Part shown: positions 17,363 through 61,924 of the stretch, piece after piece
How positions within the stretch are numbered: the first letter of the stretch is position 1
Layout: each line of letters opens with the position of its first letter
Origin: Isurus oxyrinchus
Taxonomy: Eukaryota
Assembly: GCA_026770705.1 (NCBI GenBank)
Contig: JANJGN010000088.1
Location: forward strand, 930,001 to 994,000
DNA length: 64,000 bases
Reading direction: 5' to 3'
The notes under the pieces: generated by a model
Told to the model about the DNA's origin: nothing
Databases searched by the model: none
Seen by the model: only the letters and a program-made list of their open reading frames with translations
Made by a program: the position numbers and the translations under genes

Positions 17363-17745
17363 CTATGAACAGGATTTGAAGCCTTCAGTTAGAACAAGTG
17401 ACACATTGACCAGGGTGGGTTTGCTGTGAGATTTATTGATGCTCCTGAACAGACTTGTTGTGACTGACTCGTGTCCCACCACACAGGAGTAAGTGGTGCC
17501 GCTGTTCCACTCGTCTGCGGAGACTGTCAACTGACTGCCCGAGTTCCAGCCACTTCTGCCATCCTCGGTCACCGGCTGGTTCACAAATCCTGACTTCAGA
17601 AGGGTGTCGTTGGCCATCCAGGCCAGGTAGATCTCTGCAGGGGAGAATCCGGTGACCAGGCAAACCAGGGTCGCGGTGTGGTCTGTCTCCATCTCATCTT
17701 GCGAAGGGGGAAGGAGGTAGACTTGAGGGTGAGTCTTAATGTCAA
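17363..17745 (-). CDS. IgW: IgW CH6-type terminal exon (10th C domain) with canonical secretory tailpiece
   Basis: (V)DIKTHPQVYLLPPSQDE...TLVCLVTGFSPAEIYLAW...YSCVVGHES...NKSHSKPTLVNVSLVLTEGFKSCS*. NVS sequon and penultimate Cys. Confidence 0.94.
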
Positions 17746-18812
17746 CTGGAAACAGAGACAATGTAGGTTAGACTGAGCCCCCTCTCATCCTGCATACACT
17801 CGGCACGTTCTGCTCTTAACACAAATCTGGGCAACTTCTGCGTCCCCAGGGACCCCTCCTCTATCAGAAAGTAAAGGCAATGACCTCTTTCTGGCCATTG
17901 TTGGGGTAGGGTGCAAGGGGCAGGATCATCAATCTTGCTGATTTTAAACTTGGGGAGGCAATGAACCATTGGGAATCTGCAGGAAGAGTGTTCGGATGGT
18001 TAATAGGGATGTGCTGACCTTAAAATGATCGAAATAATCAAAACCCTTACAATCATGAGGGATTTCACTGGCAGGAGAGTCAGTAAACAGAGGGCAGATA
18101 TTAAAGAGGAGCTGGCAAATGAACCAGTGGGAAGATGAGAATTTTTTTTTGCTCTGCGAGTTATGATTATTTGAAATGCGCTGTCTGAAGGAGGGTTGTG
18201 GAAGCAGTTAAATAGCAACTTTCACAAGGGAATTGGACATATGCTTGGAAAGGAGAAAATTTTAAGCCTATTGGGAAAGAGCAGATTGGGTGTCAGATTA
18301 ATTGAATAGCTCTTGCAACGAGCTGGCACAGGCATGATGGACCAAATGGCCTCCTGTGCTCCATGATTCTCTTAGAAATACCAGAGATCCACTTCCCAGC
18401 CCCTGCTTACTGTTGTAAAGAGGTAGGCTTCAGGAATTAATCTTGTCCTGTGGTGTCTGCTCCATCTCCCTTTCCTCTTAATGGACTTGCTCATCTTCAA
18501 CCTACACCTCAGACGGACCTCTCTCACCGCTCCAATAGCTGGCTTGTTTCAGGCACTTCTTAATGTTGTGATAACTGCTAATTCCTCTCCGTCTATCTCC
18601 CCTCACTGTGAATCCATCCCACAAGGACTTGTGTGGTTTGGAGTGAGGCCATTGTGGAGATTTGAGGTTTTATCTGATCCATTTCTTAGCAGGGTTCGCA
18701 CATCTCTGGGCCATTAACACAGTGTGACACCCCATACTAGATAGTTTACCACTTGATGGTCATAAATCACTTCATTTGCTCAGACCAGACGCACAGCTTC
18801 ATCCACACGTAC

Positions 18813-19133
18813 CTTGGGCTTTCCTGATTGACCTCTTCTCAGGCGTTGGCAAACTCTTGTCCTCCACCAAACACAAATACTCTACCCCACTCTCCCACTC
18901 TGCAGCAGGGACCATCAGTCTGCTGAAGATCATGTCTTTGTCTCCATTCCTCTTGGGACCCTGAGTCTTCACTCCATCTTCTCTCTTGATTCCATCCGCC
19001 TGCCAGGTTACCCTGACTCCCTCTAAATCACTGTGAAGTACCTCGCAAAGTATAGTCGCTGTCCTGTTCCTCCAGATCTCTTCAAAAGGAGGCTTCCTTA
19101 AGGTGACTGAGATCCCAGTGTCCAAACATTCAT
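18813..19133 (-). CDS. IgW: IgW CH5-type exon (9th C domain)
   Basis: 321 nt: (D)ECLDTGISVTLRKPPFEEIWRNRTATILCEV...YLCLVEDKSLPTPEKRSIRKAQ, donor G|gtacgt. Confidence 0.92.
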
Positions 19134-19981
19134 CTGGGAGAAAAATTATCATTGTTATTTCGTGATTCCCTCACGGGATGTGGACATGGCTTGCAAGGCT
19201 GGCATTTCATGCACATCGCCACATGTACAATAGTGGCTTGTTCGACTCTTTCAGAGGGCAGCTCTGCATCAGCCACATTGGTCTGTGCCTGTAGCCACAT
19301 CTGGGGCAGACAGGGTAAGGACAGCAGGTATCCTTCCCTCAAGGAAGATGAACAAACCTGTTGGGTTTTTAATGACAATCTAACGCCTTCAAGGTCACTT
19401 TACTGATTCTAACTTTTTATTACCAATTTTTACTTTCTGCAACTGAATTCAAATTCTCAAGCTGTCTTAGATTTGAACTCAGTTGTCTGCATTAGTGATT
19501 GTATATGTCAACCTTGGCACGTTGGTAGGGCAAGCTCCTCTACCTGCGATGGTTGTGCGTTCACGACCCACTACGGATACTTGAGCACAAAATCAAGAAT
19601 GACAAACCCCATGCCGATACTGAGGGAATGCGGCACTGTTGGGTATGCCGTCTCTCAGTAAGAGACATTAAGCCACGGCCCCTTCTCAGGCCAGCCAAAG
19701 AGATCACATTGTCGCCAATTTGGAAAAAAAGGGGAGAGGGGCCAAAATTTAACAGATTACCTGGTCTTCATCATAATGCAGTTTATCGGGCCTTGCCTTA
19801 TGCAAATTAGTTGACGCTTTCTTTGCATTGAAACAGTTACGACACCTCAACAAAAGTACTCTTTTGGCTGTGAGGCACATCCTGAGGATGTGAAAGCTAC
19901 AACATTAATGCTATTGTCTCTTTCTTTGTCCAGACCTCTAGAATATTAATCCACTCACATAGTCACTACATAACCACATAC

Positions 19982-20299
19982 CTTGGAAGTTCTTCACCGT
20001 CTCACTGGTGTTGAAGTTGGAGGGTGGATGAGACACTGCACAGGTGAAGTTTAAGCCTTTCCTCCACTCCTCTGCACTCACAGTCAGGTAGTGCCTGACG
20101 CAGAATGTCCCGGCCTGTTCCAGAGCAGTGTGTCCAGTGTGGGCCTTGGAGGAGATCAGAGCACCATCTTTCTCCCAGGTGACATTTATGAGGTCTGGGT
20201 AGAATCCAGTGATCACACACTCGAGTGTGGCTGTGCTCTTACCCTTGATCTCTTCAGTTGGTTGAAACAGCAATCTGACCTTGGGACTTTTTGGCTCGA
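19982..20299 (-). CDS. IgW: IgW CH4-type exon, copy c (8th C domain, more divergent)
   Basis: 318 nt: (V)EPKSPKVRLLFQPTEEIKGKSTATLECVITGFYPD...TFCVRHY...FTCAVSHPPSNFNTSETVKNFQ, donor G|gtatgt. Confidence 0.92.
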
Positions 20300-20389
20300 C
20301 TGGAATAGACAGACAAAACCAAGAAGTTGTTAAATTCCTTCCCTGAAAGTGAACAAAGTTAGTTATGTAATTTCTGATCTCTCACCCAC

Positions 20390-20692
20390 CTTTTACACTC
20401 TTTACCCATTTTGAAATGGGTGAGGATGAGGAACGACTTTGAGCAGAGCACACGAACTCCACCCCGCTGTCCCATTCCTCTGCAGTGGTTCGGAGTCGGC
20501 TGGTGACGATGTATTGGGTCCCTTCCTCTCTCTGTCGCTGGGTTGAAACCCCTTTACTTCGCTCCTGCCCGTTCATGTTCCAGGTGATGCGGACCTGGCT
20601 CGGATTGGAACAGACCACTGTACACACCAGGGTAGCTGTCTTGTTGATCCAAACCTCTTCCATAAGTGGACTTTGGATAAAGACAGATATTT
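20390..20692 (-). CDS. IgW: IgW CH3-type exon, copy c (7th C domain)
   Basis: 303 nt: (E)ISVFIQSPLMEEVWINKTATLVCTVVCS...SPISKWVKSVK. Intact splice sites. Confidence 0.92.
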
Positions 20693-21194
20693 CTGGGAAG
20701 GGGAAATTATACAAATCAGAAGAACGGGCATTAATTAGTATCAGCCACTTGTGGCCTTCAATAGGAATCCAGTTTAATGTGTTTCACCTGGAGCTGCTAA
20801 TCGATCATGCGACACTGCACTTAAATTTTTCAACAAGTTGAACATTAGAAAATCCCAGGGTTGTTTAAAAAATGTCTTGCAATTCTCAGTTTGCAAGTTT
20901 TGACTGAGAAAACATCGTAGGACAACCAAGAACCCACTGGATCCCTTTTGAATCTGTCTGCCCTTACCGTGACCAAGAGATCCACAGTGAGGACTGCAGT
21001 TGAGTTGTGGGGTGAGTGGCTTTTAGATGCGACAATGTTACTAACAATGCAATCTCTGGTTTGTGAAATGGAGTGAAACAGAGATACAAACTGCTTAGCA
21101 AAAGGAACAATTCAGTAAATGCTTTTTCACTGCGTGGGGCTGTGGAATGATTTTTGACATTGAGCACACTGAATGAACGAAGGGCCCATTTCTT

Positions 21195-21600
21195 TTAGCT
21201 GCGGCTCAGTTGATAGCACGCTCACCTCCAAATCAGAACGTTGTGGATTCATGTCCCACAAAACTCAAAGCTGATGCCCCAGTGCAATACTGAGGGAGTG
21301 CTGCACTGTCAGAGCACTGCCTTTTGGATGAGAATTGAAAATGAGGCGCCAAATGCCGGCTTAGGTAGGTGTAAAAGAAGGACATCAGGGAAGCTCGTTC
21401 CAATACCCTGATCAGTATATATCCCTCACTCAACATCACAAAAACAGGATCCCTGGTTATTGTCACATTACTCTTTGTGGGAACTTGCTGTGTGTAAATT
21501 GGCTGCTGTGTTTCCAACTTTAGAACAGTGGCTGCACTTCAAAAGTACTTCATTTTGGCATGTCCTGTGGTCACGAAAGATGACATGTAAATGTGAGCCT
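21195..21600 (+). mobile_element. tRNA-derived SINE-like element (paralogue at about 28022-28425; related copies at about 12950-13270 and 16415-16735)
   Basis: ggctcagttgatagcac A-box-like start, gtggattcatgtccca B-box-like motif, shared core with other copies. Confidence 0.55.
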
Positions 21601-23304
21601 TTCTTTACTTTTCTTCCTCTAATTGGAGCTGGCCTGGATCACATCAGTTTTAAAATTCTTATCCTAATGTTCACGGCTTCACCTCTCCCTATCCCTGTAA
21701 CCTTCTCCAGCCCTACAGCCGCCCAGAAACTCTGCACAACTCTAGACACTTGTACATCCTTATCTTCCTTTCCCCCTGCATTGGTGGCTGTGTCTTCAGC
21801 CGTCTAGGCCCTAATGCCTGGAATTCACTGCCTAAACCTCAGCCACCTGCCACCTCTCTCCTCATTTGAGGTGCTGCATAAAACCTCTCTATTTTGCCAA
21901 GATTTTGGCCACAAGATCTCCTCCTGGAGGCTCAGCATCAGTTTTGCTTTGGCTTTGGTCCTGTGAAGCACCTTGGGATGTTTTACTACATTAAAGTCTC
22001 TATATCGATTCAAGTTATCATTGGTGATCATTCCCTGTCAAAGAAGGTTAGTTTTCATTGGCAGAGCAACTCCCATGAATCAGGGGAGTAACAGAAGTCC
22101 CCTCTTCCTGCAGGTTGGTGATCATTTCTGCATAACACGGACTTCCCCTCATTTCATTCCGGAGTTTACTGGCCTGGGAAGGGAATGATTGATTGAATTC
22201 TTCACACTTTCTCCTTGGTGCTCAACTCCCATGGATCGCAACCTTTTCAGATATCCCGCAGCTCACTGCGTGTTCTGTATACTGTTAACACAGACACACA
22301 CGCATATACACACAGACACACACATGCACACACACATTCACTGCGTGAATCACAACTGCTTTGATCCACACTAATTGTTCTCTCACGATGTAATGTTAAC
22401 ACTTACAGAGTGACTGGATTACTCCATCTGTGTCCATATCAAAACCTGTCATGAACACCACATATTGACTCTTCCGGCTGCAGTTTCAGCTGATGTTCAG
22501 TGTCTGTCTAATAGGACTGTGTCTTTTATTAGGTTATTTATTCTGTTTCTCTCTCTCTTGCCTTTTAAACAAAACCTTGATCAATTTCCTTCCAGATTGG
22601 GATTGCTCAATATATTAATGATTAAGTCTAGGTGTTTTTCACGTTGATCTCCCATCATAAAACCTCATAGGGTTGGGAACAATCCCCTTATCACTGTAAA
22701 ATAATAACATTATTGGGCAAGAGGTGTTTAATTCCATTTACCCTTTGTGCGGAATTTTGAAAAAACACTTCCCTGCCTTGGATTCCTGTGAACATTGAGC
22801 TCCTGACATTGACTGAGATGAGTATCCAGATTGGGAGAGTGATGGGAACTGTTTCTATTTCTGCAACCCAGAATTTCATTTAAAACAGACCAGGCCATTC
22901 AGGACACCAGTTAAATCCTTGTGTGCTGAATCACCAACTTGCCTCAGGATCATTGAAGGGGGCCAATCCGGCTATTTCACTGGATCAATGAGTCCTACTC
23001 CAGCACCTCCCAACCTCCTGGCCTCTCTGGGTGACAAACAGGCTTCTAATCCTTTCCAACTTGAGAGTCAGACTTGAGAGACAATGGTCAGTCGGTGGGG
23101 TCGGGTCCCTATTCACTCTGACCCAGCGCAGGTCACAAAGAAATGACCATTCAGATAAGGAGTGGGTTGTCTGGGGGAACCCAACCTAGGGCTGTAACTT
23201 CTCGCAGTATTCACACTTTCATTCTGACGGATACCCTGGGATACATTTGAACCTGCCAGATGGTTTGTAATAAAATTCAGCGACCAATTCCATTCACAAA
23301 CTCA

Positions 23305-23462
23305 TCACTTTATTTCACATTTTTGTTGGTAGCAGTCATATTGGAGCTGATCACCATTTTTGAGGGTCACATTGAGGTTAGTCTGGTAGAGAAACTTCGG
23401 CATACAGTCAGAACAAGAACAAGGAGAACTTGGAACTGGACGACATGCGTTTCCACCTGGAA
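23305..23462 (-). CDS. IgW: Cys-rich secretory tail exon T3 (copy of T1)
   Basis: 158 nt: (V)PGGNACRPVPSSPCSCSDCMPKFLYQTNLNVTLKNGDQLQYDCYQQKCEIK*. 6 Cys; acceptor and overlapping AATAAA intact. Confidence 0.85.
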
Positions 23463-23835
23463 CTGGAAGAGTTGCAGATTTAAGTGTTATGCATTTTCAC
23501 CTCCCCTCCCCTCTACTGGGGAAGTGGGAGCTCCATGCAGCCCCTGGCCTCTGCTCTGTCCTGTCTTCTAAAGATCCTAAAAGAACTAGATCATGTAGAC
23601 ACTGACAAGCTGTTTTTACCTTGTCCAGAACAGTAAAATCAGTGGGTATGGCCTCTGTTTGAAGGGGGCAGGATGAACAATCGTTCTTTCTTTACTTGGC
23701 CTCTAGATTACTCGTCCACCTAGGTAATAACTACATCACCACACCGACGTTGTGAGGTTTGAATTTGCCTGGCCCCAAGAGAATTTATATGAGAAGACCA
23801 TGATGTCAATATTGGAATCAGGCCCAGGACCTTAC

Positions 23836-24153
23836 CTGGGACATTTTTCACCTCCTTGCTGATGACGAAGTTGGAAAGTGGATGAGACACTGTACAGCTG
23901 AAGGCTGATCCTGTCCTCCACTCCTCTGCACTCACAGTCAGGTAGTGCCTGACATTGAAGGTCCCTGCCTGTTCCAGAGCGGTGAGTCCAGCATGGGTGT
24001 TGGAGGAGATCGGAACACCATCTTTCTGCCAGGAGACGTGTAAGAGCTCCGGGTAGAATCCAGTGATCACACACTCGAGTGTGGCTGTGCTCTGGTTCTT
24101 GACCTCTTGGGCTGGGGGAGGCAGCAGCCTGACCTTGGGACTTTTTGGCTCGA
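23836..24153 (-). CDS. IgW: IgW CH4-type exon, copy b (6th C domain)
   Basis: 318 nt, nearly identical to CH4a (DGVP vs DGAP). Intact splice sites. Confidence 0.92.
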
Positions 24154-24243
24154 CTGGAATAGACAGGCAAAACAAAGAAGCTGTTAAATTCCTTCCCTGA
24201 AAGTGAACAAAGTTAGTTATGTAATTTCTGATCTCTCACCCAC

Positions 24244-24546
24244 CTTTTACACTCTTTGCCCGTTTTGAAATGGGTGAGGATGAGGAACCACTTTGAGCAG
24301 AGCACACGAACTCCACCCCGCTGTCCCATTCCTCTGCAGTGGTTCGGAGTCGGCTGGTGACGATGTATTGGGTTCCTTCCTCTCTCTGTCGCTGGGTTGA
24401 AACCCCTTTACTTCGCTCCTGCCCGTTCATGTTCCAGGTGATGCGGACTTGGCTCGGATCTGAACAGACTACTTTACACACCAGGGTAGCAGTCTTGTTG
24501 ATCCAAACCTCTTCAACAGAAGGATTTTGGATAAAAACTGACATTT
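24244..24546 (-). CDS. IgW: IgW CH3-type exon, copy b (5th C domain)
   Basis: 303 nt: (E)MSVFIQNPSVEEVWINKTATLVCKVVCSD...KRAKSVK. Intact splice sites. Confidence 0.92.
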
Positions 24547-26258
24547 CTGGGAAGCAGAAAGTGAAAACTTTAGAAGGATTGACGTTATTTGGTGTTGGCA
24601 GGCTTCAGAATTTTAGGGTGGTGTCTCCCTACTGATGTTGGTGGATGATAGGTCAACACAGAAGTGACTTTAAACTGCCACCTGTTTTAATCTCTTGAGT
24701 TGATACTGGGTGAAATACACAGCATTTAAGTTTGCAGCAAACTGAGCCTTTAGAAAATCCAAGGGTCGCTTTAGCAATGTCTAGCAATTCTTGACTCGCA
24801 TGTTATGATTGAGAAAACATAATCAGAGCACTAAGAACCTGCCGTATCCATTTTGAATTTGTTTGCTGTGCCTGTGACCAATAGGCCCACAGTGAGGAGT
24901 GCAAATTGCATTCTAGGACTGAGCAACATTTAGATGTGACACTGTGAATCAATTGCAAAGCCCAGTTTGTTAAATGGAGTGAGGCAGATGCAGATCGCTT
25001 AGCAATGGAAACAATTGAATAAAGGCTTATTTACTTACAGCCCCTCCACCTCCCCGCTGTTGTATGGTTGATTTGTGACATTGAACAGATTGAATCAATG
25101 AGTTGCCCTTTTTGGAGACAGCCTTGGATTGCCTCCATTTCAAAATCCTTATCCTAGTGTTGACATCTCGCTGGCCTTGCCTCTCCATATCTCTGTCACA
25201 TTTGCCAGCCCAATAACCGTCTGAAAATGCTGCTTTCCACCAACATTAACCTCTTGTACACCCCACACTCCCTTCGCCCTAACAGTAGCAGCTGTCCATC
25301 AGCCATCTAGACCCTGCTCTGTGTAAGTCTATCCCTGAATCACAATTACATGGCCAACCCTCTCTCCTCCTTTAAGACGCTCCATAAAAACGACCTCTGC
25401 CCCCGCCTCCTCCTTTGGTTCTTTATCAATTTCTGTCCGATTACTCTCCAATGCAGAACTTTAGACCTCTGTCCACACTAAAGGTGATATATAAAAGCAG
25501 GTTATTGTAGATAAGTCTCTGTGAAGATAGATGATTAGTGTGCAGTGGCAGAGCAAGCCACAAATCAGATGTAGTGACAGCTCCTTTGCTGGAGCTCGGG
25601 GATAATTTATGCAAAACGTTTACATCCCATCTCCAGTTTCATGTCCAAGAGACTAGATAAAAAGCAAATGTTTTACCGAGTACTTCATACGTTTTCCCCA
25701 TTGCCAGCAGTTTCCCAAAAGACCATTGTCACTTCAGATATCCCGCAGCTCACTGCGTGTTCTGAACACTATTCACGCGCACAAACACACATTCACTGTG
25801 CGAATCACAACACTTCTCCCTCTATATAATGAACAGTAGACACTTGGGTATGATGGGAAGGATGACAATTACTGCATCAGGATCAAATCCTTTCATGAGC
25901 TTCGAGAACCAACTCCTCCGGCTGCAGTTTCAGATGATGTCCTGTACACAGGGTGGTGGGATTTTCCAATGGCCATTTGGGTGGCTCGCCACATCTGCTG
26001 CAGAGGGACCCACTGCAGTGGAGCCAGAAAATCCTGGCCAGTGTCTGACAAGACCCTATCTTTCATTAACTTGAGATGGGTGAACGGAAGAGTTTATCAC
26101 TTCTGCTGCCATGGATTTCCATCCAGAACCTACCGGATTGTACAGGAGCCAGATGGAACCCTGCAGCCGGTCTCAGCGGTTTGCCTCAGGACCAGAATCA
26201 TTGAAATGGGACAGCCTTCTTTTACTGGATCAACGCGATTCAATTCACAACCAGCCCA

Positions 26259-26437
26259 TCATCGAATTTCACACATTTGTTGACAACATTTATACTGGCA
26301 TGGATCAGCATCAGAGAAGGTCATGTTACAGTTAATCTGATATAGGAACCTCAGCATCCAGCCAGAACAAGAATCAGTCAGACAAGAGCAAGCAGCATTT
26401 CCACCCGGAACAGGAAGATTTGTGTTTCCACCTAGAA
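26259..26437 (-). CDS. IgW: Divergent Cys-rich secretory tail exon T2
   Basis: ccag acceptor, phase 1, open frame: (V)LGGNTNLPVPGGNAACSCLTDSCSGWMLRFLYQINCNMTFSDADPCQYKCCQQMCEIR*. Clearly homologous to T1. Confidence 0.78.
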
Positions 26438-26809
26438 CTGGAAGAGCTGCGGATTTAAGTGTTATGCATTTTCACCTCCCCTCCCCTCTACTGGGGAAGT
26501 GGGAGCTCCATGCAGCCCCTGGCCTCTGCTCTGTCCTGTCTTCTAAAGATCCTAAAAGAACTAGATCATGTAGACACTGACAAGCTGTTGTTACCTTGTC
26601 CAGAACAGTAAAATCAGTGGGAATGGCCTCTGTTTGAAGGGGGCAGGATGAACAATCGTTCTTTCTTTACTTGGCCTCTAGATTACTCGTCCACCTAGGT
26701 AATAACTACATCACCACACCTACGTTGTGAGTTTGAATTTGCCTGGCCCCAAGAGAATTTATATGAGAAGACCATGATGTCAATATTGGAATCAGGCCCA
26801 GGACCTTAC

Positions 26810-27127
26810 CTGGGACATTCTTCACCTCCTTGCTGATGACGAAGTTGGAAAGTGGATGAGACACTGTACAGCTGAAGGCTGATCCTGTCCTCCACTCCTC
26901 TGCACTCACAGTCAGGTAGTGCCTGACATTGAAAGTCCCTGCCTGTTCCAGAGCGGTGAGTCCAGCGTGGGTGTTGGAGGAGATTGGAGCACCATCTTTC
27001 TGCCAGGAGACGTGTAAGAGCTCCGGGTAGAATCCAGTGATCACACACTCGAGTGTGGCTGTGCTCTGATTCTTGACCTCTTGGGCTGGTGGAGGCAGCA
27101 GCCTGACCTTGGGACTTTTTGGCTCGA
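26810..27127 (-). CDS. IgW: IgW CH4-type exon, copy a (4th C domain)
   Basis: 318 nt: (V)EPKSPKVRLLPPPAQEVKNQSTATLECVITGFYPE...FSCTVSHPLSNFVISKEVKNVP, donor G|gtaagg. Confidence 0.92.
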
Positions 27128-27216
27128 CTGGAATAAACAGGCAAAACAAAGAAGCTGTTAAATTCCTTCCCTGAAAGTGAACAAAGTTAGTTATGTAATT
27201 TCTATCTCTCACCCAC

Positions 27217-27519
27217 CTTTTACACTCTTTGCCCGTTTTGAAATGGGTGAGGATGAGGAACCACTTTGAGCAGAGCACACGAACTCCACCCCGCTGTCCC
27301 ATTCCTCTGCAGTGGTTCGGAGTCGGCTGGTGATGATGTATTGTGTTCCTTCCTCTCTCTGTCGCTGGGTTGAAACCCCTTTACTTCGCTCCTGCCCGTT
27401 CATGTTCCAGGTGATGCGGACCTGGCTCGGATTGGAACAGACCACTTTACACACCAGGGTAGCTGTCTTGTTGATCCAAACCTCTTCCATAAGTGGACTT
27501 TGGATAAAGACAGATATTT
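27217..27519 (-). CDS. IgW: IgW CH3-type exon, copy a (3rd C domain)
   Basis: 303 nt: (E)ISVFIQSPLMEEVWINKTATLVCKVVCS...EFVCSAQSGSSSSPISKRAKSVK, donor G|gtgggt. Confidence 0.92.
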
Positions 27520-30123
27520 CTGGGAAGGGGAAATTATACAAATCAGAAGAACGGGCATTATTTAGTATCAGCCACTTGTGGCCTTCAATCGGAACCCAGT
27601 TTAATGTGTTTCACCTGGAGCTGCTAATCGATCATGCGACACTGCACCTAAATATTTTAACAAGTTGAACATTAGAAAATCCCAGGGTTGTTTAAAAAAT
27701 GTCTTGCAATTCTCAGTTTGCAGGTTTTGACTGAGAAAACATCGTAGGACAACCAAGAACCCACTGGATCCCTTTTGAATCTGTCTGCCCTTACCATGAC
27801 CAAGAGATCCACAGTGAGGACTGCAGTTGAGTTGTGGGGTGAGTGGCTTTTTGATGCGACAATGTTACTAACAATGCAATCTCTGGTTTGTGAAATGGAG
27901 TGAAACAGAGATACAAACTGCTTAGCAAAAGGAACAATTCAGTAAATGCTTTTTCACTGCGCGGGGCTGTGGAATGATTTTTGACATTGAGCACACTGAA
28001 TGAACGAAGGGCCCATTTCTTTTAGCTGCGGCTCAGTTGGTAGCACGCTCACCTCCAAATCAGAACGTTGTGGATTCATGTCCCACAAAACTCAAAGTTG
28101 ATGCCCCAGTGCAATACTGAGGGAGTGCTGCACTGTCGGAGCACTGCCTTTTGGATGAGAATTGAAAATGAGGCGCCACATGCTGCCTTAGGTAGGCGTA
28201 AAAGAAGGACATCAGGGAAGCTTGTTCCAATACCCTGATCAGTATATATCCCTCACTCAACATCACAAAAACAGGATCCCTGGTTATTGTCACATTACTC
28301 TTTGTGGGGACTTGCTGTGTGTAAATTGGCTGCTGTGTTTCCAACTTTACATCAGTGGCTGCACTTCAAAAGTACTTCATTTTGGCATGTCCTGTGGTCA
28401 CGAAAGATGACATGTAAATGTGAGCCTTTCTTTACTTTTCTTCCTCTAATTGGAGCTGGCCTGGATCACATCAGTTTTAAAATTCTTATCCTAATGTTCA
28501 CGGCTTCACCTCTCCCTATCTCTGTAACCTTCTCCAGCCCTACAGCCGCCCAGAAACTCTGCACAACTCTTGTACATCTTTATCTTCCTTTCCCCCTGCA
28601 TTGGTGGCTGTGTCTTCAACCGTCTAGGCCCTAATGCCTGGAATTCACTGCCTAAACCTCAGCCACCTGCCACCTCTCTCCTCATTTGAGATGCTGCTTA
28701 AAACCTCTCTATTTTGCCAAGATTTTGGCCACAAGATCTCCTCCTGGAGGCTCAGCATCAGTTTTGCTTTGGCTTTGGTCCTGTGAAGCACCTTGGGATG
28801 TTTTACTACATTAAAGTCTCTATATCAATTCAAGTTATCATTGGTGATCATTCCCTGTCAAAGAAGGTTAGTTTGCATTGGCAGAGCAACTCCCATGAAT
28901 CAGGGGAGTAACAGAAGTCCCCTCTTCCTGCAGGTTGGGGATCATTTCTGCATAACAAGGACTTCCCCTCATTTCATTCCGGAGTTTACTGGCCTGGGAA
29001 GGGAATGATTGATTGAATTCTTCACATTTTCTCCTTGGTGCTCAACTCCCACTGATCACAATCTCTTCAGATATCCCGCAGCTCACTGCGTGTTCTGTAT
29101 ATTGTTAACACAGACACACACGCATATACACACAGACACACACATGCACACACACATTCACTGCGTGAACCACAACTGCTTTGATCCTCACTATTTGTTC
29201 TGTCTCGATTTAATGTTAACACTTACAGAGTGACTGGATTACTCCATCTGTGTCCATATCAAAACCTGTCATGAACACCACATATTAAGTCTTCCGGCTG
29301 CAGTTTTAGCTGATGTTCAGTGTCTGTCTAATAGGACTGTGTCTTTTATTAGGTTATTTATTCTGTTTCTCTCTCTCTTGCCTTTCAAACAAAACGTTGA
29401 TCAATTTCCTTCCAGATTGGGATTGCTCAATATATTAATGATTAAGTCTAGGTGTTTTTCACGTTGATCTCCCATCATAAAACCTCATAGGGTTGGGAAC
29501 AATCCCCTTATCACTGTAAAATAATAACATTATTGGGCAAGAGGTGTTTAATTCCATTTACCCTTTGTGCGGAATTTTGAAAAAACACTTCCCCGACTGG
29601 AATTCCTGTGAACATTGAGCTCCTGACATTGACTGAGATGAGTATCCAGATTGGGAGAGTGATGGGAACTGTTTCTATTTCTGCAACCCAGAATTTCATC
29701 TAAAACAGACCAGGCCATTCAGGGCACCAGTTAAATCCTTGTGTGCTGAATCACCAACTTGCCTCAGGATCAATGAAGGGGGCCAATCCAGCCATTTCAC
29801 TGGATCAATGAGTCCCACTCCAGCACTTCCCAACCTCCCGGCCTCTCTGGGTGACAAACAGGCTTCTAATCCTTTCCAACTTGAGTCAGACTTGAGAGAC
29901 AATGGTCAATCGGTGGGGTCGGGTCCCTATTCACTCTGACCCAGCGCAGGTCACAAAAAAAATGACCATTTAGATCAGGAGTGGTTTGTCTGGGGGAACC
30001 CAAACTCGGGCTGTAACTTCTTGCAGTATTCACACTTTCATTCTGACGGATACCCTAGGATAGATTTGAACCTGCCAGATGGTTTGTAATAAAATTCAAT
30101 GGCCAATTCCATTCACAAACTCA

Positions 30124-30281: not shown

Positions 30282-30961
30282 CTGGAGGAGTTGCAGATTT
30301 AAGCGTTATACATTTTCACCTCCCCTACTCTGTGCTGGGCAAGTGGGAACTCCACACGGCCTCAAAACTCTGCTCAATCCTGTCTTTGCAGGATCCTAAA
30401 GGAACCTGATCAGGTGGACAATGAAAAGCTGGTTCACCTTGTCCAGAATAGGAAGATCAGGGGAAATGACTTCTGCTTGAAGGGGGAAGGGTGGGGGATT
30501 CAATTCAAAATTAATGCAGCAATAGATTGATCAATCTCTGGAACAGGTTCAGGAGACAGTGAAGCAGATCCATGCAATTCTTGCAAATGCAAAATTGGAA
30601 AGATTTCTTTCTTAATGCAGCACTTGGGAGGGAGTAGAAAAGGAAAAGTTAGGAGGCGATTTCAACCGTGGATGGTAATAGATAGGTCGGTATCAGATGG
30701 GATGTATCAGATGGATCATTTCACAGCCTGTCCCATTTTCATTTCTAGTCACAGAGAGTCACATTGAATGAGGCTGTAAACAAGCAGCTGACCCAATTCC
30801 AGCAGTTTCACTGCTTGCTACGTTAGGTTAAAATTACTCCCCTTAAGGGTAGCTTCAATAACAAAACACAAAATACTGAACATTCACCTTTCCCAACAGG
30901 GTTGATATTAGTGACAGCAATTCACAGATTGAGGGTGGGCGTTGGCACGTTAAGTTAATAC

Positions 30962-31190
30962 GACAAAAACAGAAAATGCTGGAAAAAACTCAGCAGGTCT
31001 GACAGCATCTGTGGGTAGAGAAACTGAGTTAACATTTCGAGCCCAATATGACTCTGAAGAAAGGCCACACAGACTCGAAACATTAACTCTGTTTCTCTCC
31101 CCACAGATGCTGTCAGACCTGATGAGTTTTTCCAACGTTTTTGTTTTTTTTTTAGTTTCCCAGCATCCGCGGTATTTTGCTTTTATCTTA
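30962..31190 (+). mobile_element. Penelope-like element hairpin remnant
   Basis: About 75-bp inverted repeat flanking ctgaaga...cgaaac; related half-copies at about 49065-49165 and 49560-49700. Confidence 0.6.
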
Positions 31191-31252
31191 ATTTAATACC
31201 AGTCTGCATTACTGATGATATATTCATTTCTCCCCCCTCAGGCACCACTTAC

Positions 31253-31561
31253 CCCCTTCGTTTCTCGTGTATCTCATGCTGATCCTCTTATTGAATCTTG
31301 AAGGTGTGTGGGACACTTCACAGGCGTACTCAACCCCTTTCTTCCATTCCACCACAGGAACAGTCAGGTAAGTGACTCTTTCGAATGTAGTGTCTGTGTT
31401 CTGTTGGGAAGGCAGAACAACACCCGTTTTGTCCTCCTGGCCTTTCTTCCAGGAAACCTTTATGCTGTCGGGATCAAATCCGGATATCATACAGCCCAGG
31501 ACAGTGGTAGTTTGATTGTAGACAAACTCCGCGGATGGAACAAGGGTGGTGACAATCGGCG
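31253..31561 (-). CDS. IgW: IgW CH2 exon
   Basis: 309 nt: (A)PIVTTLVPSAEF...LGCMISGFDPDSIKVSW...YACEVSHTPSRFNKRISMRYTRNEG, donor G|gtaagt. Confidence 0.93.
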
Positions 31562-31964
31562 CTGGAGAGGTAAAACATTGCAATGTTTCAGATTACACTG
31601 TTGTTTTGCCACAGGAAAGATGTACTCTATTCCCTCAGCATCTCGAGTAACTGTCACGATGCCAACTCCCATTCATCATCAATTTGACTGGGTTCCCTCT
31701 GACCCTCCCCTGAAATATTTGCTAATCCTTTCAGTTCTAGATTCCGGCAAATGGGCTGAACCTTTCAAATTTTAGTTCCTGAGTTTCTTACTACACAAGT
31801 TCAAATTTTTCTTACTGGTACCTGACAATCTCACAGTGCCGATAACCGGTCTGAGATTGGCACAAATAGGGTAGCACTTCATAAAACTGAGACTTTGGGG
31901 ATTTCAGGCAGAATTTACAATTCTCCATAATAATGGGGACAAATTTAATCTCGACTTGACATTC

Positions 31965-33320
31965 CCCCAGTAACCTTTGACTCCCTTGTTAGTCAAGAAT
32001 CTATCTTCATCTGCCTTAAAAATATTCATTGTCCCTGTTTCCACCGCTCTCTGGGTAAGAGAGTTCCAAAGATTCACGACATCATGAGAGAAAAAGATTT
32101 CTTCTCATCTCCATCTTAAATGGGAGACCCCTTATTTTTAAACTGTTCCCCCAAGATCAAGTCTCTCCCACAAGGGGAAATGTCCTTTCAGCATCCGCCC
32201 TGTCAAGTCCCCTCAGGATCTGATATGTTTCAATGAGATCACCTCTCAATTTTCTAAACTCCAATGGATACAGGCCCAGCCTGTCCAACCTATCCTCATG
32301 AGATAACGCCCCCATCCCAGGTATCAATCGAGTGAACCTTCTTTGAACTGCTTCTAATGATTTAAACACTTTCCTAAATAAGCAAGACCAAAACTGGACA
32401 CTGTACCCTTGATGTGGTCCCACCAATGTCCCATACAACTGTAGCAAAACACCCCTACTTTTCTATTCCATTCGCATTGCAATAAGCAACAACATTCCAT
32501 TTGCCTTCTGAACCACTTGCTGTGTCTATATTCTAACTTCTCCTGATTCATGTACCAGGACACTCGGATCCCTCTGCTCTTCAGAGTTGTGCAGTCTCTC
32601 TCCATTTAAATAATATGCTGCTTTTCTATTCTTCCTGCCAAAGTAGACAAGTTCACATTTTCCCACGTTATACTCCATCTGCCAAATTTTTGCCACTCAC
32701 TTAACCTATGTCCCTTTGCAGACTCCTTATATCCTCTTCACAACTTACTTTCCTACCTTTCTCTGTGTCATCAACAAATTTAGGAACTATACATTCGGTC
32801 CCTTCATCCAAGTCATTGATATAAATTGTAAATATTTGAGGCCTCAGCACTGATCCCTGTGACACTCTAGTCATCACATCTGTTCAACACAAAGAAGATC
32901 CATTTGTCCCTATTCTCTGCTTCCTGTTAGCTAACCAATACTCCATCCATGCTAATATATTTCCCCCTACACCAGGAGCTCTTATTTTGCATCATAATCT
33001 TTTATGTGGCATCTTGTCAGATGCCTTCTGGAAATCTAAGCACAGCACATCCACAAGTTCCCCTTTATGGATGTTGCTTGTTACTTACTTATAGAACTCC
33101 AATAAATTAGTTAAACATGATTTCTCTTTCACAAAGCCGTGTTGATTCTGCCTCATTGCATTGAGATTTTCTAAGTGCCCCGCTATAACTACTTTAATAT
33201 CAGATTCCAGCAGTTTCCCTACAAGAGATTTTAATCAAACTGGCCTGCAGTTTTCTGCTTTCTGTCTCCTTCCTTTCTTGAAGAGAGGCATCACAGTCAC
33301 TATTTTACAATCTGATGGGA
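31965..33320 (-). mobile_element. Decayed CR1 RT fragment
   Basis: LVGPHQGYSVQFWS...VQRRFTRLIPG...RGDLIETY. Confidence 0.85.
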
Positions 33321-33511
33321 CCTCATTGTCCTTCCTTTTGTTACCACAGTACTGCTGGCATGCAGGGATCAAATATATGGGTCCAAGAATTCAATCAGGT
33401 TCTATTGTGCAGCAAGCTCTTACATTGGTGGCTGATGTTTTCTTGTCCAATTTCATCATCACCCACCCCAACACCAGTAGTTTTAAATGACAAATAATAT
33501 CTTGTACTAAC

Positions 33512-33826
33512 CTTTAGGTTTCGTGATCTGACGCTCCACCATTTCATTTGACTTGTAACCCGCCTTACAGTGGTAGACTGTATTGGCATTCCAATCTGAT
33601 GCAGAGATTTTGAGCACGCTGCTCATCATGTAATTCTTATCATTCCCCTGGACTGCCGCATATGTCTGAATTCCAGTGGTAATGACCCGATTGTTACTGG
33701 ACCATATCAGAGTGATGCTCTTAGGATGAAAGTCCTTGACCAGGCAGAAGAAGCTGATCTCATCTTGGTCCCTGTCCATGCCACAGGAAGGGTTGGGGAT
33801 GTAGACCGATGGTGCAGACTGGGCAA
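33512..33826 (-). CDS. IgW: IgW CH1 exon
   Basis: 315 nt, phase 1/1: (V)[41 protein letters not shown]...[22 protein letters not shown]1-set motifs plus the PSC cysteine at the light-chain-pairing position. Confidence 0.93.
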
Positions 33827-34014
33827 CTGAAATATAAATAGTTTCACACAGATAAGCCTAGTAAAGAAACACATACAAATATATGAACTAGGAGCAGGAG
33901 TGGGCCTTTTGGCCCTTTTGGCCCTGCTCTGCCATTTGATAATGGCTGATCTGATTGCAGCCTCAATCTACTTTCCTGTCTACCCTCTTTCACCTTTGAC
34001 TCCCTTGTTACTCA

Positions 34015-34995
34015 GTGTAGAGGGAGCTTTACACTGTATCTAACTGCGAGCCGTACCTGTCCTGTGTGTGTTTGATGGGGACAGTGTAGAGGGAGCTTTA
34101 CTCTGTATCTAACCGCGAGCTGTACCTTTCCTGGGTGTGTTTGATGGGGACAGTGTAGAGGGAGCTTTGCTCTGTACCTAACCCCGTGCTATACCTGTCC
34201 TGGGAGTGTTTGATGGGGACAGTGGAGAGGGAGCTTTACACTGTATCTAACCGCGAGCTGTACCTGTCCTGGGTGTGTTTGATGGGGATGATGTAGAGGG
34301 AGCTTTACTCTGTGTCTAACCCCGTGCTGTACCTGTCCTGGGAGTGGTTGTTGGGGACAGTGTAGACGGAGCTTTACTCTGTATCTAACCCCGAGCTGTA
34401 CCTGTCCTGGGTGTGTTTGATGGGGACAGTGTAGAGGGAACTTTACACTGTATCTAACCGCGAGCTGTACCTGTCCTGGGTGTGTTTGATGGGGACAGTG
34501 TAGAGGGAGCTTTACTCTGTATCTAACCGCGAGCTGTACCTGTCCTGGGTGTGTTTGATGGGGACGGTGTAGAGGGAGCTTTACTCTGTATCTAACCCCG
34601 TGCTGTATCTGTCCTGGGAGTGTTTGATGGGGACAGTGTAGAGGGAGCTTTACTCTGTATCTAACCCTGTGCTGTACCTGTCCTGGGAGTGTTTGTTGGG
34701 GACAGTGTAGAGGGAGCTTTACTCTGTAGACAACCCTGTGCTGTATCTGTCCTGGGAGTGTTTGATGGAGACAGTGAAGAGGGAGCTTTACTCTGTATCT
34801 AACCCCGTGCTGTACCTGTCCTGGGAGTGTTTGATGGGGACAGTGAAGAGGGAGCTTTACTCTGTATCTAACCCCGTGCTGTACCTGTCCTGGGAGTGTT
34901 TGATGGGGACAGTGTAGAGGGAGATTTACTCTGTATCGAACCCCATGCTGTTCTTGTCTTGGGAGTGTTTGATATGATGGTGTAGAGGGAGATTT
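34015..34995. repeat. 69-bp tandem repeat, about 14 copies
   Basis: gtgtttgatggggacagtgtagagggagctttactctgtatctaaccccgtgctgtacctgtcctggga; explains the 23-aa periodic ORF. Confidence 0.95.
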
Positions 34996-35089
34996 ACTAA
35001 AATTGTACAATCCTAGGGAGCATGGCAGTTCAGAGGGAGTTTTATTCAGTATCTCAGTGTCATAGATGATGGGGAGGATTTATACTAAC

Positions 35090-38989: not shown

Positions 38990-40300
38990 ACATTCGGACA
39001 AGATGCTGATCAATAAGTAACATTCACCCCACACAGGTGCCAGGCAATGACCATCTCCAACAAGAGAGAATCTACCCTCATCCCTTGACATTCAATGGCA
39101 TTGCTGTCGCTGAATCCCCCACTATCAACATCTTGGGGATTACCATTGACCAGAAACTGAGCTAGATCATACTGTGGCTACAAGAGCAAGTTAGATACTG
39201 GGAATCCTGTGGAGAGTAACTCACCTCCAGACTCCCCAACCTGTCCACCATCTACAAGGCACAATTCAGGAGTGTGATGGGATACTCTCCACTTGCCTGA
39301 ATGAGTGCAGCTCCCACAACATTCGAGAAGCTCGACACCGTCCAGGACAAAGCAGCCCCACTTGATTGGCACCTCACCCACAAACATTCACTTCTTCGAC
39401 CACTGACGCACAGTGGCAGCAGTGTGCGTACCATCTAAAAGATGCACTGCAGGAACTCACCAAGGCTCCTCAGACAGCACCTTCCAAACCCACGACCACT
39501 ACCATCTAGATGGACAAGGGCAGCAGACACATGGGGAACACCCACCTCCTGGAAGTTTCTCTCCGAGCCCCTCACCTTCCCGACTTGGAAATATATCGGC
39601 TGTTCCTTCACTGTCGCTGGGTCAAAATCCTGGAACTCCCTCCCTAACAGCGCTGTGGGTGTACCTACACCACAGGGACAAAATTATGGAACTCCCTCCC
39701 TAACAGCACTGTGGGTGTACCTACACTACAGGGGACAAAATCCTGGAACTCCCTCCCTAACAGCGCTGTGGGTATACCTACACCACGGAGACAAAATCCT
39801 GGAACTCCCTCCCTAACAGCGCAGTGGGTGTACCTACACCACAGGGGACAAAATCCTGGAACTCCCTCCCTAACAGCGCGGTAGGTATACCTACAACTCA
39901 CGGACAAAATCCTAGAACTCCCTCCCGAACAGCGCCGTGGATGTCCCTACACCACACAGGGGACAAAATCCTGGAACTCCCTCCCTAACAGCGCTGTGGG
40001 TGTACCTACACTACAGGGGACAAAATCCTGGAATTCCCTCCCTAACAGCGCTGTGGGTGTACCTACACCACAGGGGACAAAATCCTGGAACTCCCTCCCT
40101 AACAGCACTGTGGGTGTACCTACACCACAGAGACAAAATCCTGGACCTCCCTCCCTAACAGCGCTGTGGGTGTACCTACACCACATGGACTGCAGCGGTT
40201 CAAGAAACCAGCTTACCACCACCACCTCTAGGGGCAATTAGGGATGGGCAATAAATGCTAGCCTGACCAGCGAAGCCCACATCCCATAAATGAATGAAAA
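38990..40300 (+). mobile_element. Second-family LINE 3' part with an internal 56-57-bp tandem amplification (about 39620-40185)
   Basis: About 10 copies of caaaatcctggaactccctccctaacagcgctgtgggtgtacctacaccacaggga, single-copy in other family members. Confidence 0.85.
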
Positions 40301-42146: not shown

Positions 42147-42194
42147 CTGAAGTCACTTCCAGGAAGGTTCCACTCCCCCAGTAATCAAGATAGT
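42147..42194 (-). CDS. IgW: JH segment (YLDYWGSGTFLEVTS)
   Basis: WGxG motif, donor G|gtaaga, preceded by a 23-RSS. Confidence 0.95.
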
Positions 42195-42233
42195 CACTGT
42201 GCTCCATCTCCTCATTGACCCAATACAATAACT
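42195..42233 (-). promoter_or_regulatory. JH 5' RSS, 23-bp spacer
   Basis: CACTGTG (42195-42201), 23 nt spacer, ACAATAACT (42225-42233). Confidence 0.92.
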
Positions 42234-42570: not shown

Positions 42571-42635
42571 AGTTTCTGTCAAGCTCTCTACTGCTGTGGT
42601 TCCATATCACAGTGCTTCACCCCAGATCATAAACC
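42571..42635 (-). other. IgW: D3 segment (ATATGGAAC, 42599-42607) with 12/12 RSS
   Basis: CACAGTG-12-TCATAAACC on the V-facing side; CACAGCA-12-ACAGAAACT on the J-facing side. Confidence 0.88.
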
Positions 42636-42974
42636 ATGGGTATAAGATCCAACCTGAAATAAACTGTCCCAAACAAGCAGCCAGTAGTTTTATTAACTCC
42701 TCAGTCTGTATTCGTGTGTCCCCCATGCACCAGGTGGCAAACTCAGGGTTTTCCAGGACTTTACAGGAAGATGAGATAATCCACAAGGAGTTTTCATTGT
42801 TCTTCATCCTCTCTCTGTTACTCACTGTTCTTTCACCTTTCAAATATCATCTTCAAAGAAAGTTGTTCACACAGCCAGATTATTTAATCGGGATCTGATT
42901 TATATCCACGGGTCAGGAGGTAAAGGTCGGTGATATCGCCCAAAGGGTCCAGTTTAAATAGTTTTCCTGTGACA

Positions 42975-43056
42975 GGTTTTTGAATGGAGGGATCCCCCGT
43001 CTCTCTCACTGTGTCACTCCAGTATAGACACTGTGATCCACACCCGTACATTAACC
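42975..43056 (-). other. IgW: D2 segment (TCTATACTGGAGTGA, 43014-43028) with 5' 12-RSS and 3' 23-RSS; paralogue of D1
   Basis: Heptamers at 43029-43035 and 43007-43013. Same nonamers and spacer lengths as D1, near-identical flanks. Confidence 0.93.
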
Positions 43057-43700
43057 TCCTCCCCTTTCACTGTCACTGAGCCCAGTCACTTCACATTTAA
43101 ACCACACTGACACTGCTACAAGTGAGCAGTCCTGCTCTCGGATTCACACTGACGATGGTTTGGGATGTGATGTTTCAGTGGTTCTGTTACTGGATCAGTG
43201 ATCTGAAGGCCTGGGTTTAATTATCCAGAGAATCCTGAGTTCAATCCCTCTGTGGTAATCTGGGAATTTCGCTTTAAAAATCTGGGGAAAATGCTGGGAT
43301 CAGTAAAAGTGACCATGAAGCTGTTGGATTGTCATAAAAAAACCAACTGGTTCACCCTTGTCTTGAATGAAAGGAAATCCGGTCTAGTCTATAGGTGACT
43401 CCAGTCTCACACTCAATGTGGTTGACTCTTACCTGCCCTCTGAAGGGGTCATTGAGGCTCTCGGTTACCATCATCTTCTCAGGGTAACGAGGGATGGGGA
43501 ACAAATGTCAGACTTGACAGTGACCTCTTCACCCTACAGCTGTTACTCACTCTTGTTTCTGTCTTTCAAATAACATCTTCAAAGAAAGTTGTTCACACAG
43601 CCAGATTATTTAATTGGGATCTGATTTATATCCACGGGTCAGGAGGTAAAGGTCGGTGCTATCGCCCAAAGGGTCCAGTTTAAATAGTTTTCCTGTGACA

Positions 43701-43781
43701 GGTTTTTGAATGGAGGGATCCCCCATCTCTCTCACTGTGCCACGTAGTATAGACACTGTGATCCACACCCGTACATTAACC
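43701..43781 (-). other. IgW: D1 segment (TCTATACTACGTGG, 43740-43753) with 5' 12-RSS and 3' 23-RSS
   Basis: Heptamers at 43754-43760 and 43733-43739. Nonamers ACATTAACC (12 spacer) and TCAAAAACC (23 spacer). Confidence 0.93.
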
Positions 43782-44130
43782 TCCTCCCCTTTCACTGTCA
43801 CTGAGCCCAGTCACTTCACATTTAAACCACACTGACACTGCTACAAGTGAGCAGTCCTGCTCTCGGATTCACACTGACGATGGTTTGGGATGCGGTGTTA
43901 CAGTTTATAGAGATTTTTTTAAACGTGTCCCGAGCCCGAGTTTCTGTCGGCTCCCAGGTTTCCCATCACATCTCCAGCCCAGGAATCCCCAGCGAATAGT
44001 CCCATTCCCATTTCCGGGGGAAGGCAGATCCCAACACAATCAGGATGGGAATAAAGCTGTGCTGATAACTGAGGGTGAGCGATCATTCCTCCCCTTTCAC
44101 TCACTCCCCTGACTGCAGATTCTCTCACTG

Positions 44131-44169
44131 AGTTTTTGTCCCAGTCCAGCCCTGCTTCCTCTCACTGTG
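44131..44169 (-). promoter_or_regulatory. VH 3' recombination signal sequence, 23-bp spacer
   Basis: CACAGTG (44169-44163), 23 nt spacer, ACAAAAACT (44139-44131). Confidence 0.95.
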
Positions 44170-44467
44170 TCCCTCGCACAATAATAGATGGCGGTGTCAT
44201 CCGCTCTCAGATTAGGAATCTTAATGGAGGTTGTGGAAGATTCAGTTGAAAACGTAAATCGACCCTGAACTCCAGGTGCGTAGTAAGTGCTATATCCTTG
44301 GCTGTAAGCAAGTAACCATTCCAGCCCTTTTCCGGGGACCTGTTTCACCCAGCTCATGTAGTAGCTGTTGATATTGTACCCACTCACTGTACAGGACAGT
44401 GTGACAGAGTCCCCCGGCTTTTTCACAGCTGATTTGGGCTGGGTCAGCACGATAGCGGACCAGACAC
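44170..44467 (-). CDS. IgW: IgW VH exon, germline and unrearranged
   Basis: ag acceptor then (G)VWSAIVLTQPKSAVKKPGDSVTLSCTVSGYNINSYYMSWVKQVPGKGLEWLLAYSQGYSTYYAPGVQGRFTFSTESSTTSIKIPNLRADDTAIYYCAR. Conserved C, W, GLEW and YYCAR motifs. Has a conventional FR2/CDR2, so not a VNAR. Confidence 0.95.
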
Positions 44468-44579: not shown

Positions 44580-44625
44580 CTGTCAGACAGAGCAGAAGGA
44601 CACAGAGATAAGGAGCAAACCCCAT
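44580..44625 (-). CDS. IgW: IgW heavy chain leader exon (MGFAPYLCVLLLCLT-G)
   Basis: ATG at 44625, 46-nt hydrophobic signal exon, phase-1 donor G|gtgagg, 112-nt intron before the V exon. Confidence 0.93.
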
Positions 44626-44934: not shown

Positions 44935-45700
44935 ACTGAGACACCAGTCAGTGTGAAACTCCCTGAGAGAGGAGGACTGAGGGACACCAGTCAGTGTGAA
45001 ACTCCCTGAGAGAGGGGGACTGAGGGACACCAGTCAGTGTGAAACTCCCTGAGAGAGGAGGACTGAGGGACACCAGTCAGTGTGAAACTCCCTGAGAGAG
45101 GAGGACTGAGGGACAGCAGTCAGTGTGAAACTCCCTGAGAGAGGAGGACTGAGGGACACCAGTCAGTGTGAAACTCCCTGAGAGAGGGGGACTGAGGGAC
45201 ACCAGTGTGAAACTCCCTGAGAGAGGAGGACTGAGGGACACCAGTCAGTGTGAAACTCCCTGAGAGAGGAGGACTGAGGGACACCAGTCAGTGTGAAACT
45301 CCCTGAGAGAGGAGGACTGAGGGACACCAGTCAGTGTGAAACTCCCTGAGAGAGGAGGACTGAGGGACACCAGTCAGTGTGAAACTCCCTGAGAGAGGAG
45401 GACTGAGGGACACTAGTCAGTGTGAAACTCCCTGAGAGAGGAGGACTGAGGGACACCAGTCAGTGTAAAACTCCCTGAGAGAGGAGGACTGAGGCACACC
45501 AGTCAGTGTGACACTCCCTGAGAGAGGAGGACTGAGGCACACCAGTCAGTGTGACACTCCCTGAGAGAGGGGGACTGAGGGACACCAGTCAGTGTGAAAC
45601 TCCCTGAGAGAGGAGGACTGAGGGACACCAGTCAGTGTGAAACTCCCTGAGAGAGGAGGACTGAGGGACACCAGTCAATGTACAGATATCTCCCTGAGAG
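44935..45700. repeat. 43-bp minisatellite, about 17 copies, upstream of the VH promoter
   Basis: gggacaccagtcagtgtgaaactccctgagagaggaggactga. Confidence 0.95.
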
Positions 45701-45719
45701 AGAGATAATGAGACAAAAA

Positions 45720-53877: not shown

Positions 53878-54339
53878 GAAGTGGAGAAATCGTTTCACTC
53901 AAAGGGTTGTGGATCTTTGGAATCCTCTACCTCGGGGGCCATTGATGCTCAGTCATTGAGGCTATTCAAGAAATGGATCAATAGGTTTTTGTGTATTCAG
54001 GGCATGAAGGAATATGGGGATAATGTGGGAAGGTGGGGCTAAGGTTGAAGGTCAGCCTTGATCATATTGAATGGCAGAGCAAGTTCAAGGGTCCAAATGG
54101 CCTCATCCTGGTAGATTTAGATGAGGAAAAATGTGAGGAGCTCCAGTGGAATATAAATACTGGTATGGACTGGTTGGGCCAAATGGACTATTTATGTGTT
54201 GTGTATCCTGTATAATCCCATGTGAGATGGGCAAACTGCTTAATGGGAATGCTGACACTAAATCTGAGAAGGGATCTATGGCAGATCCATATTGTTACAA
54301 AGGGTGATAGAGGTGTTCACAATGAGAGAATGAATTAGT

Positions 54340-55270
54340 ACGTTATCTGCAGCAATATCAGCACCTTGTATCCATGTATCACACCTACACCAGCAACACT
54401 CTCTAAAGTATTACTACTGTATCTGCAGCAATAACAGCACCAGGTATCCGTGTATCACACCCACACCAGTAACACTGTCTAAAGTATTAGTACTGTATCT
54501 GCAGCAATAACAGCACCGGGTATCTGTGTATCACACCCACATCAATAACACTGTCTAAAGTATTAATACTGTATCTGCAGCAGTAACAGCACCGGGTATC
54601 CGTGTATCACACCCACACAAGTAACACTGTCTAAAGTATTAGTACTGTATCTGCAGCAGTAACAGCACCGGGTAACCGTGTATCACACCCACACCAGTAA
54701 CACTGTCTAAAGTATTAGTACTGTACCTGCAGCAATAACAGCACCATGTATCACACCCACACCAGCAACACTCTCTAAAGTATTAGTACTGTATCTGCAG
54801 CAGTAACAGCACCAGGTTTCCGTGTATCACACCTACACCAGTAACACTCTCTAAAGTATTAGTACTGTACCTGCAGCAATAACAGCACCGGGTATCCGTG
54901 TATCACATCCACATCAGTAACACTTTCTGAAGTATTAATACTGTATCTGCAGCAATAACAGCACCGGGTATCCGTGTATAACACCCACACCAGTAACACT
55001 GTCTAAAGTATTAATACTGTATCTGCAGCAATAACAGCACCGCGTATCCGTGTATAACACCCACACCAGTAACACTGTCTAAAGTATTAATACTGTATCT
55101 GCAGCAATAACAGCACCGGGTATCCGTGTATAACACCCACACCAGTAACACTGTCTAAAGTATTAATACTGTATCTGCAGCAATAACAGCACCGGGTTTT
55201 CGTGTATCACACCTACACCAGCAACACTCTCTAAAGTATTAATACTGTATCTGCAGCAGTAACAGCACTG
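54340..55270. repeat. 76-bp minisatellite, about 12 copies
   Basis: gtatctgcagcaataacagcaccgggtatccgtgtatcacacccacaccagtaacactgtctaaagtattagtact. Confidence 0.95.
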
Positions 55271-57305: not shown

Positions 57306-57309
57306 TATA

Positions 57310-61850: not shown

Positions 61851-61924
61851 GTGTAAATTACCAGATCAAGGGTATTGAGTAGTCTTTATTTTACCTGGAT
61901 TGTTCCTAGCAGCTTACAATGGGA

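Follow-up and report, generated by a model that had tools for sequence, protein, structure and literature searches.

Three D segments in the IgW miniclusters of Isurus oxyrinchus, two of them from an apparently old duplication whose copies are likely homogenised by gene conversion

We consider it likely that the stretch of 64,000 nucleotides from Isurus oxyrinchus analysed here (in the following called the window) holds an intact IgW minicluster with three D segments, that this layout is shared by all five IgW clusters found in the genome, and that the duplication behind D1 and D2 took place before the lineages of this shark and of another shark species (organism B) separated, the two copies having probably been homogenised by gene conversion since then. 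The two D cores have stayed different while their flanks were probably homogenised, and in one pair of assembled clusters they have exchanged their places.

An RSS search gave the order V23, 12-D1-23, 12-D2-23, 12-D3-12, 23-J along the cluster (Table 1), and all eight RSS were located on the minus strand where the original prediction, whose order is borne out, had put them. When as many as 4 mismatches are allowed, 8 RSS and 3 facing D pairs are found in the V-J stretch of 2.1 kb, compared with a mean of 0.26 RSS and 0 D pairs in the 500 dinucleotide shuffles of this stretch that served as control, and the same scan found no facing D pairs in the rest of the window. The 3' 12-RSS of D3 is non-consensus in both its heptamer and its nonamer. 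A pair of twin blocks, each of ~340 bp, contains D1 and D2. Of the 304 interior flank positions compared between the two blocks 3 are different, against 3–4 differences in the core of 14–15 nt, a comparison that also confirmed the predicted near-identity of the blocks with differences concentrated in the D cores; the core sequences themselves agree with those originally given. The repeat in the spacer between the blocks is, we assume, SINE-like.

Table 1: Features of the IgW cluster in the window (positions are those of the window).
Feature	Position	Strand	Basis or detail
Leader exon with GT donor (MGFAPYLCVLLLCLT)	44580..44625	-	Spliced leader-V contig in RNA-type run, organism A
IgW VH exon, frame open, YYCAR at end	44170..44467	-	Protein matches to IgW V
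V 23-RSS	44131..44169	-	RSS search
Duplicated block copy 1, V-proximal	43563..43904	-	Self-comparison
D1 unit	43701..43781	-	12-RSS 43754-43781, D1 43740-43753 (14 nt), 23-RSS 43701-43739
Diverged fringe of copy 1	43525..43562	-	In register with 42800-42836
Unique spacer between twin blocks	43180..43524	.	Contains an interspersed repeat, high-copy and decayed (about 43275-43450)
Duplicated block copy 2	42837..43179	-	Self-comparison
D2 unit	42975..43056	-	12-RSS 43029-43056, D2 43014-43028 (15 nt), 23-RSS 42975-43013
D3 unit	42571..42635	-	12-RSS 42608-42635, D3 42599-42607 (9 nt), weaker 12-RSS 42571-42598
J 23-RSS (42195-42233) and JH (42147-42194, DYLDYWGSGTFLEVTS), GT donor	42147..42233	-	
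IgW C1 (about 33513-33827) and C2 (about 31254-31562)	31254..33830	-	
C3-C4 exon pairs, three in tandem (about 27520-26811, 24550-23837, 20693-19983)	19983..27523	-	
Last two IgW C exons (18814-19134 and 17366-17746, the latter including the secretory tail and stop)	17366..19134	-	

In protein searches the V of the window showed 73% identity to the horn shark IgW V W26, 59–73% to IgW of horn shark, spiny dogfish, sandbar shark and Triakis, and 91% to the Carcharodon carcharias gene model P0047, a model with 8 C domains which aligns, by eye, with proteins named IgW and which the C exons of the window match at 81–99%, exon by exon. The V match to Carcharodon would suggest a lamnid-type shark. 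Judged from these matches the cluster is IgW, the IgD orthologue of elasmobranchs, and the conventional VH and IgW isotype originally assigned to it can be retained, as V, J and C exons all match named IgW proteins. As in the known elasmobranch IgW minicluster, a leader and a conventional VH near IgW V are present, the single V, the Ds and the single J lie within about 2 kb in one orientation with 12/23-compliant RSS, and the C exons are of the IgW type (C1, C2, C3–C4 pairs, C5 and C6) with a secretory tail; a single motif search found no membrane exons in the window. An identity as IgNAR was rejected, as the V is VH-type and comes with a C1 and IgNAR loci are present elsewhere (C identity 54–59%), and so was an identity as IgM, as the C region is IgW-type with ten exons and not four C-mu exons. 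For shark IgW the available parts of two reviews give six to eight C exons (PMC5192425; PMC6795676), fewer than the ten of the window cluster. The number of C3–C4 pairs varies, with three in the window cluster, three in L002 and L003 (ten C exons), two in L004 and one in L001 (counted at window positions 17366-33830, at L029 and L030, and on contig C88 at 520667-527770 and 1270813-1277915).

Three Ds had originally been regarded as an exceptional feature of this cluster. A genome search with the V-J stretch found five copies at 96–100%, every one on contig C88, and a search with C1 gave five matches at 94–100%, with the next best of the 150 candidates scored at 37%. Each IgW C1 adjoins a V-3D-J module, and from these searches the five C1-bearing clusters appear to be the IgW set of the genome. 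All five clusters (window, L001–L004) have three Ds, so that the survey of D number in the other IgW clusters, which had been proposed as a check, revealed three Ds as the IgW norm within this genome and not as an exception, an outcome that had been named beforehand as one that would refute the original reading. A search with the block found exactly 10 D blocks in the genome, and the D1 and D2 RSS are intact in all of them, save one 22-nt spacer (in the 3' RSS of one D1) and a few spacer substitutions. Among the 35 other VH matches we examined 16, ten of them having one 12/12 D and six having two Ds, with one RSS each below the threshold in two of these six.

Under the established 12/23 rule the 23-RSS 3' of V, D1 or D2 could join any downstream 5' 12-RSS, and for the J 23-RSS the sole partner in deletional joining would be the 3' 12-RSS of D3. 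Because D3 alone has a 3' 12-RSS, passage through it would be required in deletional RAG joining, and D1, D2, both or neither might be included. The predicted paths are V-D3-J, V-D1-D3-J, V-D2-D3-J and V-D1-D2-D3-J with 2–4 junctions, as the original prediction had correctly deduced from the RSS types, and their Cys-to-Trp lengths before trimming and N addition are 31, 45, 46 and 60 nt, which would correspond to untrimmed loops of about 10, 15 or 20 residues.

It is possible, if rather doubtful in our opinion, that the extra D is idle, with D1 or D2 being nearly always skipped and IgW acting as a two-D gene. We searched five contig sets from runs presumed to be RNA, spanning organisms A and B, and the matches comprised spliced leader-V, unrearranged J-C and one short rearranged-looking in-frame junction. 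The latter, from organism B, is without the cysteine codon of V, and 5 nt in it match the end of D3; it resembles V-D3-J and would be expected if D1 and D2 are skipped, although a match of this length could be chance. A junction with both D1- and D2-derived sequence was not seen in the five sets, whose contigs drop rare variants, nor was a V-to-J joint with intervening letters seen among the contig matches listed, part of which were crowded by the spacer repeat. Protein searches found gene models and IgW of other sharks and no rearranged chain of the window V family. The available text on nurse shark IgM clusters describes rearrangement in any order within the cluster and attributes the order to RSS efficiencies that are specific to the locus (PMC2435157), which would also fit an idle D. 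Against it stand the intact D1 and D2 RSS of all ten blocks and the two cores that were kept in both organisms. An idle D would be a matter of usage, and it does not conflict with the evolutionary account given below. D-like residues in the CDR3 of sandbar shark and dogfish were considered as evidence for D usage and rejected as too short. Contigs of organism B with an unrearranged J spliced to C1 resemble sterile germline transcripts.

The origin of D1 and D2 by duplication has proved correct, and its predicted recent date has not. The region from D3 through D2 and the spacer into the 3' flank of copy 1 is covered by contigs of organism B, whose flanking DNA differs from that of the window by 2.5–3.5%; a single contig of 756 nt reaches from D2 across the spacer into this 3' flank. 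The break points of the block are 43563 and 43904 as in the window, and cores of both lengths are present in organism B, the 15-nt core being identical to D2 and the 14-nt core differing from D1 in two adjacent bases. Twin blocks, break points and both cores are common to organism B, which argues that the D1/D2 duplication is older than the split from this second shark species. Adjoining the interior with its identity of ~99%, there is a 38-nt fringe of 71% identity (27/38), in register between the copies, whose alignment score of 40 compares with 24 for the best of 2000 random window pieces and beyond which the similarity of the twin blocks ceases. This diverged fringe next to a nearly identical interior, together with the sharing with organism B, suggests that the original duplication is much older than the interior similarity implies and that the copies were likely homogenised by gene conversion.

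Several sites in the blocks bear on such a homogenisation. Within a cluster the two copies differ at 3–5 of about 304 interior flank sites, which is no larger than the 1–6 differences of the same copy between clusters. Site 43854, the one fully fixed site that forms the cross-species sign of conversion, has the same base in 10/10 blocks of this genome and the other base in all 8 covering organism-B contigs from 4/4 runs, including copy-1-specific and copy-2-specific ones, and at sites 43615 and 43573 both copies are alike within some clusters and differ between clusters. From these patterns it is likely that the twin copies are kept near-identical by gene conversion or concerted evolution. Outside the core, the block differs only by about 1–2% between organism B and this genome, and slow block evolution therefore explains part of the similarity. 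We consider it improbable that slow evolution or constraint explains nearly all of it, with little conversion and with cores that persisted by chance in an old duplication. The small difference between the organisms, the two RSS contained in the block and site 43659, which still is a position-specific marker in 5/5 clusters, would agree with this, but the species base at 43854 in both copies, the cluster-specific shared bases and the swap of the cores need an exchange between the copies.

This swap was found in L002 and L003, where the 15-nt core is located first and the 14-nt core second, the reverse of the other clusters. The swap left the markers at 43893-43900 and 43659 in place, and the exchange was therefore confined to <235 bp around the core. 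As L002 and L003 are 99.5–100% identical over four compared stretches of 5–10 kb, the swap has to be counted as one independent event. A local reciprocal (double) exchange or two conversions are its likely cause, judging from the assembly, and the swapped cores would represent a rare direct trace of germline exchange between D segments.

A recent duplication followed by diversifying selection on the D coding bases, as originally proposed, is slightly less probable again than slow evolution with little conversion. It could draw on the 3/304 interior flank sites that differ between the copies compared with up to three events in the core (Fisher p 0.18, 0.019 and 0.0016 for 1, 2 and 3 events), and organism B does suggest three events, namely an indel, a terminal base and a two-base change, the last of which lies in the 14-nt core and distinguishes organism B from this genome. 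The alignment of the blocks thus yielded a core enrichment that is nominally significant at two or three events, but as the flanks look homogenised they are a poor baseline for it. Furthermore, twin blocks common to five clusters and organism B and a diverged fringe speak against a recent date, and the cores are near-invariant among the clusters with one substitution in 10 cores, the 15-nt core being the same in organism B, so diversifying selection is not supported. In the available text on horn shark, D segments likewise vary little between clusters (PMC2191167). Each of the 4 distinct clusters holds one 14-nt and one 15-nt core, and the data fit a kept difference between two cores, four clusters being too few to prove selection. 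An assembly artefact, a false tandem duplication as the adjacent near-identical blocks might suggest, can be dismissed with near certainty given the distinct cores, the unique spacer, the recurrence in four other clusters, the own differences of each of the five clusters and the independent organism-B contigs.

According to the usual teaching, the isotype of a shark heavy-chain cluster fixes its D number, and two Ds are the textbook number for shark clusters including IgW. This count is not matched by the IgW clusters described here, but it is not strictly defining, since a review in its available part speaks generally of 'two or three Ds' per shark cluster, isotype unnamed (PMC6795676). The available passages of other papers describe VH-DH1-DH2-JH as the commonest shark cluster (PMC3308330) and two Ds for nurse shark IgM (PMC5192425; PMC2435157), and those of PMC12227049 and PMC11641339 give no D count for IgW. 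We found no description of a three-D IgW in the literature, with primary IgW papers beyond the scope of the search and a prior description possible. The shark IgM two-D cluster (V23, 12-D1-22, 12-D2-12, 23-J), the layout of six among the 16 other VH loci examined, has the same grammar minus one 12/23 D, and differs from the IgW cluster in having one fewer optional D and no twin blocks.

IgNAR has three Ds (PMC5192425; PMC4279169; PMC8692893) and up to four rearrangements (PMC5192425; PMC4279169) according to the parts of these papers available, and hence shares its D number with the IgW cluster of the window. In this genome the IgNAR clusters are arranged as V22, 12-D-23, 12-D-22, a third 3' 12-RSS and 23-J, and their spacer order is the same as in IgW as far as detected (3 V-J regions found in 4 fetched, J in 2/3 loci, 5' RSS of the third D not detected). 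In contrast to the twin-block D1 and D2 of IgW, their D1 and D2 are mutually unrelated with no self-repeat, and no DNA match was found between the IgNAR and IgW V-J regions, so the three-D likeness of both isotypes is probably convergent. A common origin of their third D was rejected given the lack of a DNA match and of twin blocks in the 3 IgNAR V-J regions, although a very old origin is possible; on this comparison the third D of IgW either arose separately from that of IgNAR or the trace has been lost. Among the IgNAR clusters with three-D layout (L021–L026), one D2 is a cysteine-bearing 20-nt core and another a 12-nt core.

More tentatively, and we would not expect it to hold in full, this lineage may have independently gained an IgNAR-like three-D grammar in which selection keeps two optional cores against the conversion of their flanks and the cores can trade places, giving a light-chain-paired class with stepwise long CDR3. 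The third D would allow longer antigen-binding loops. As RAG and the 12/23 mechanism are ordinary here, the gain is for comparative immunology: conventional VH clusters with one, two and three Ds coexist in one genome in which the whole IgW set is three-D, and this offers a natural test for the effect of an extra junction on CDR3 length in a light-chain-paired antibody and for a preference of RAG for the near or far RSS over 400–1500 bp.

Some further observations concern the VH loci of this genome. L005–L014 (contigs C26, C140, C151, C152 and C210) form a family of VH clusters in which the only D is a 12/12 segment of 19 nt and the V is IgW-like, showing 58–59% to P0047, and in the two clusters of this family that were checked no C exon lies within about 15 kb downstream. 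In L004 the J is 9 nt shorter at its 5' end and the V 4 nt shorter at its 3' end, and a J that is short by the same 9 nt was found also in an organism-B contig. Two IgW clusters on C88 (about 491000-540000 and 1258000-1307000) form an inverted pair with 99.5–100% identity, which is either a segmental duplication that happened very recently or a haplotype that has been retained. Minisatellite arrays are located in the window at 44935-45702, 34013-34998, 39619-40190, 54334-55268, 57304-58495 and 61919-63713, one of them directly upstream of the IgW promoter region. Unlike the D cores, the V exons differ between distinct IgW clusters (window, L001–L004) at 22–30 of about 298 bases (7–10%) compared with 2–3% in the flanks, mainly by changed codons in CDR1 and CDR2, a pattern that usually indicates positive selection on V.
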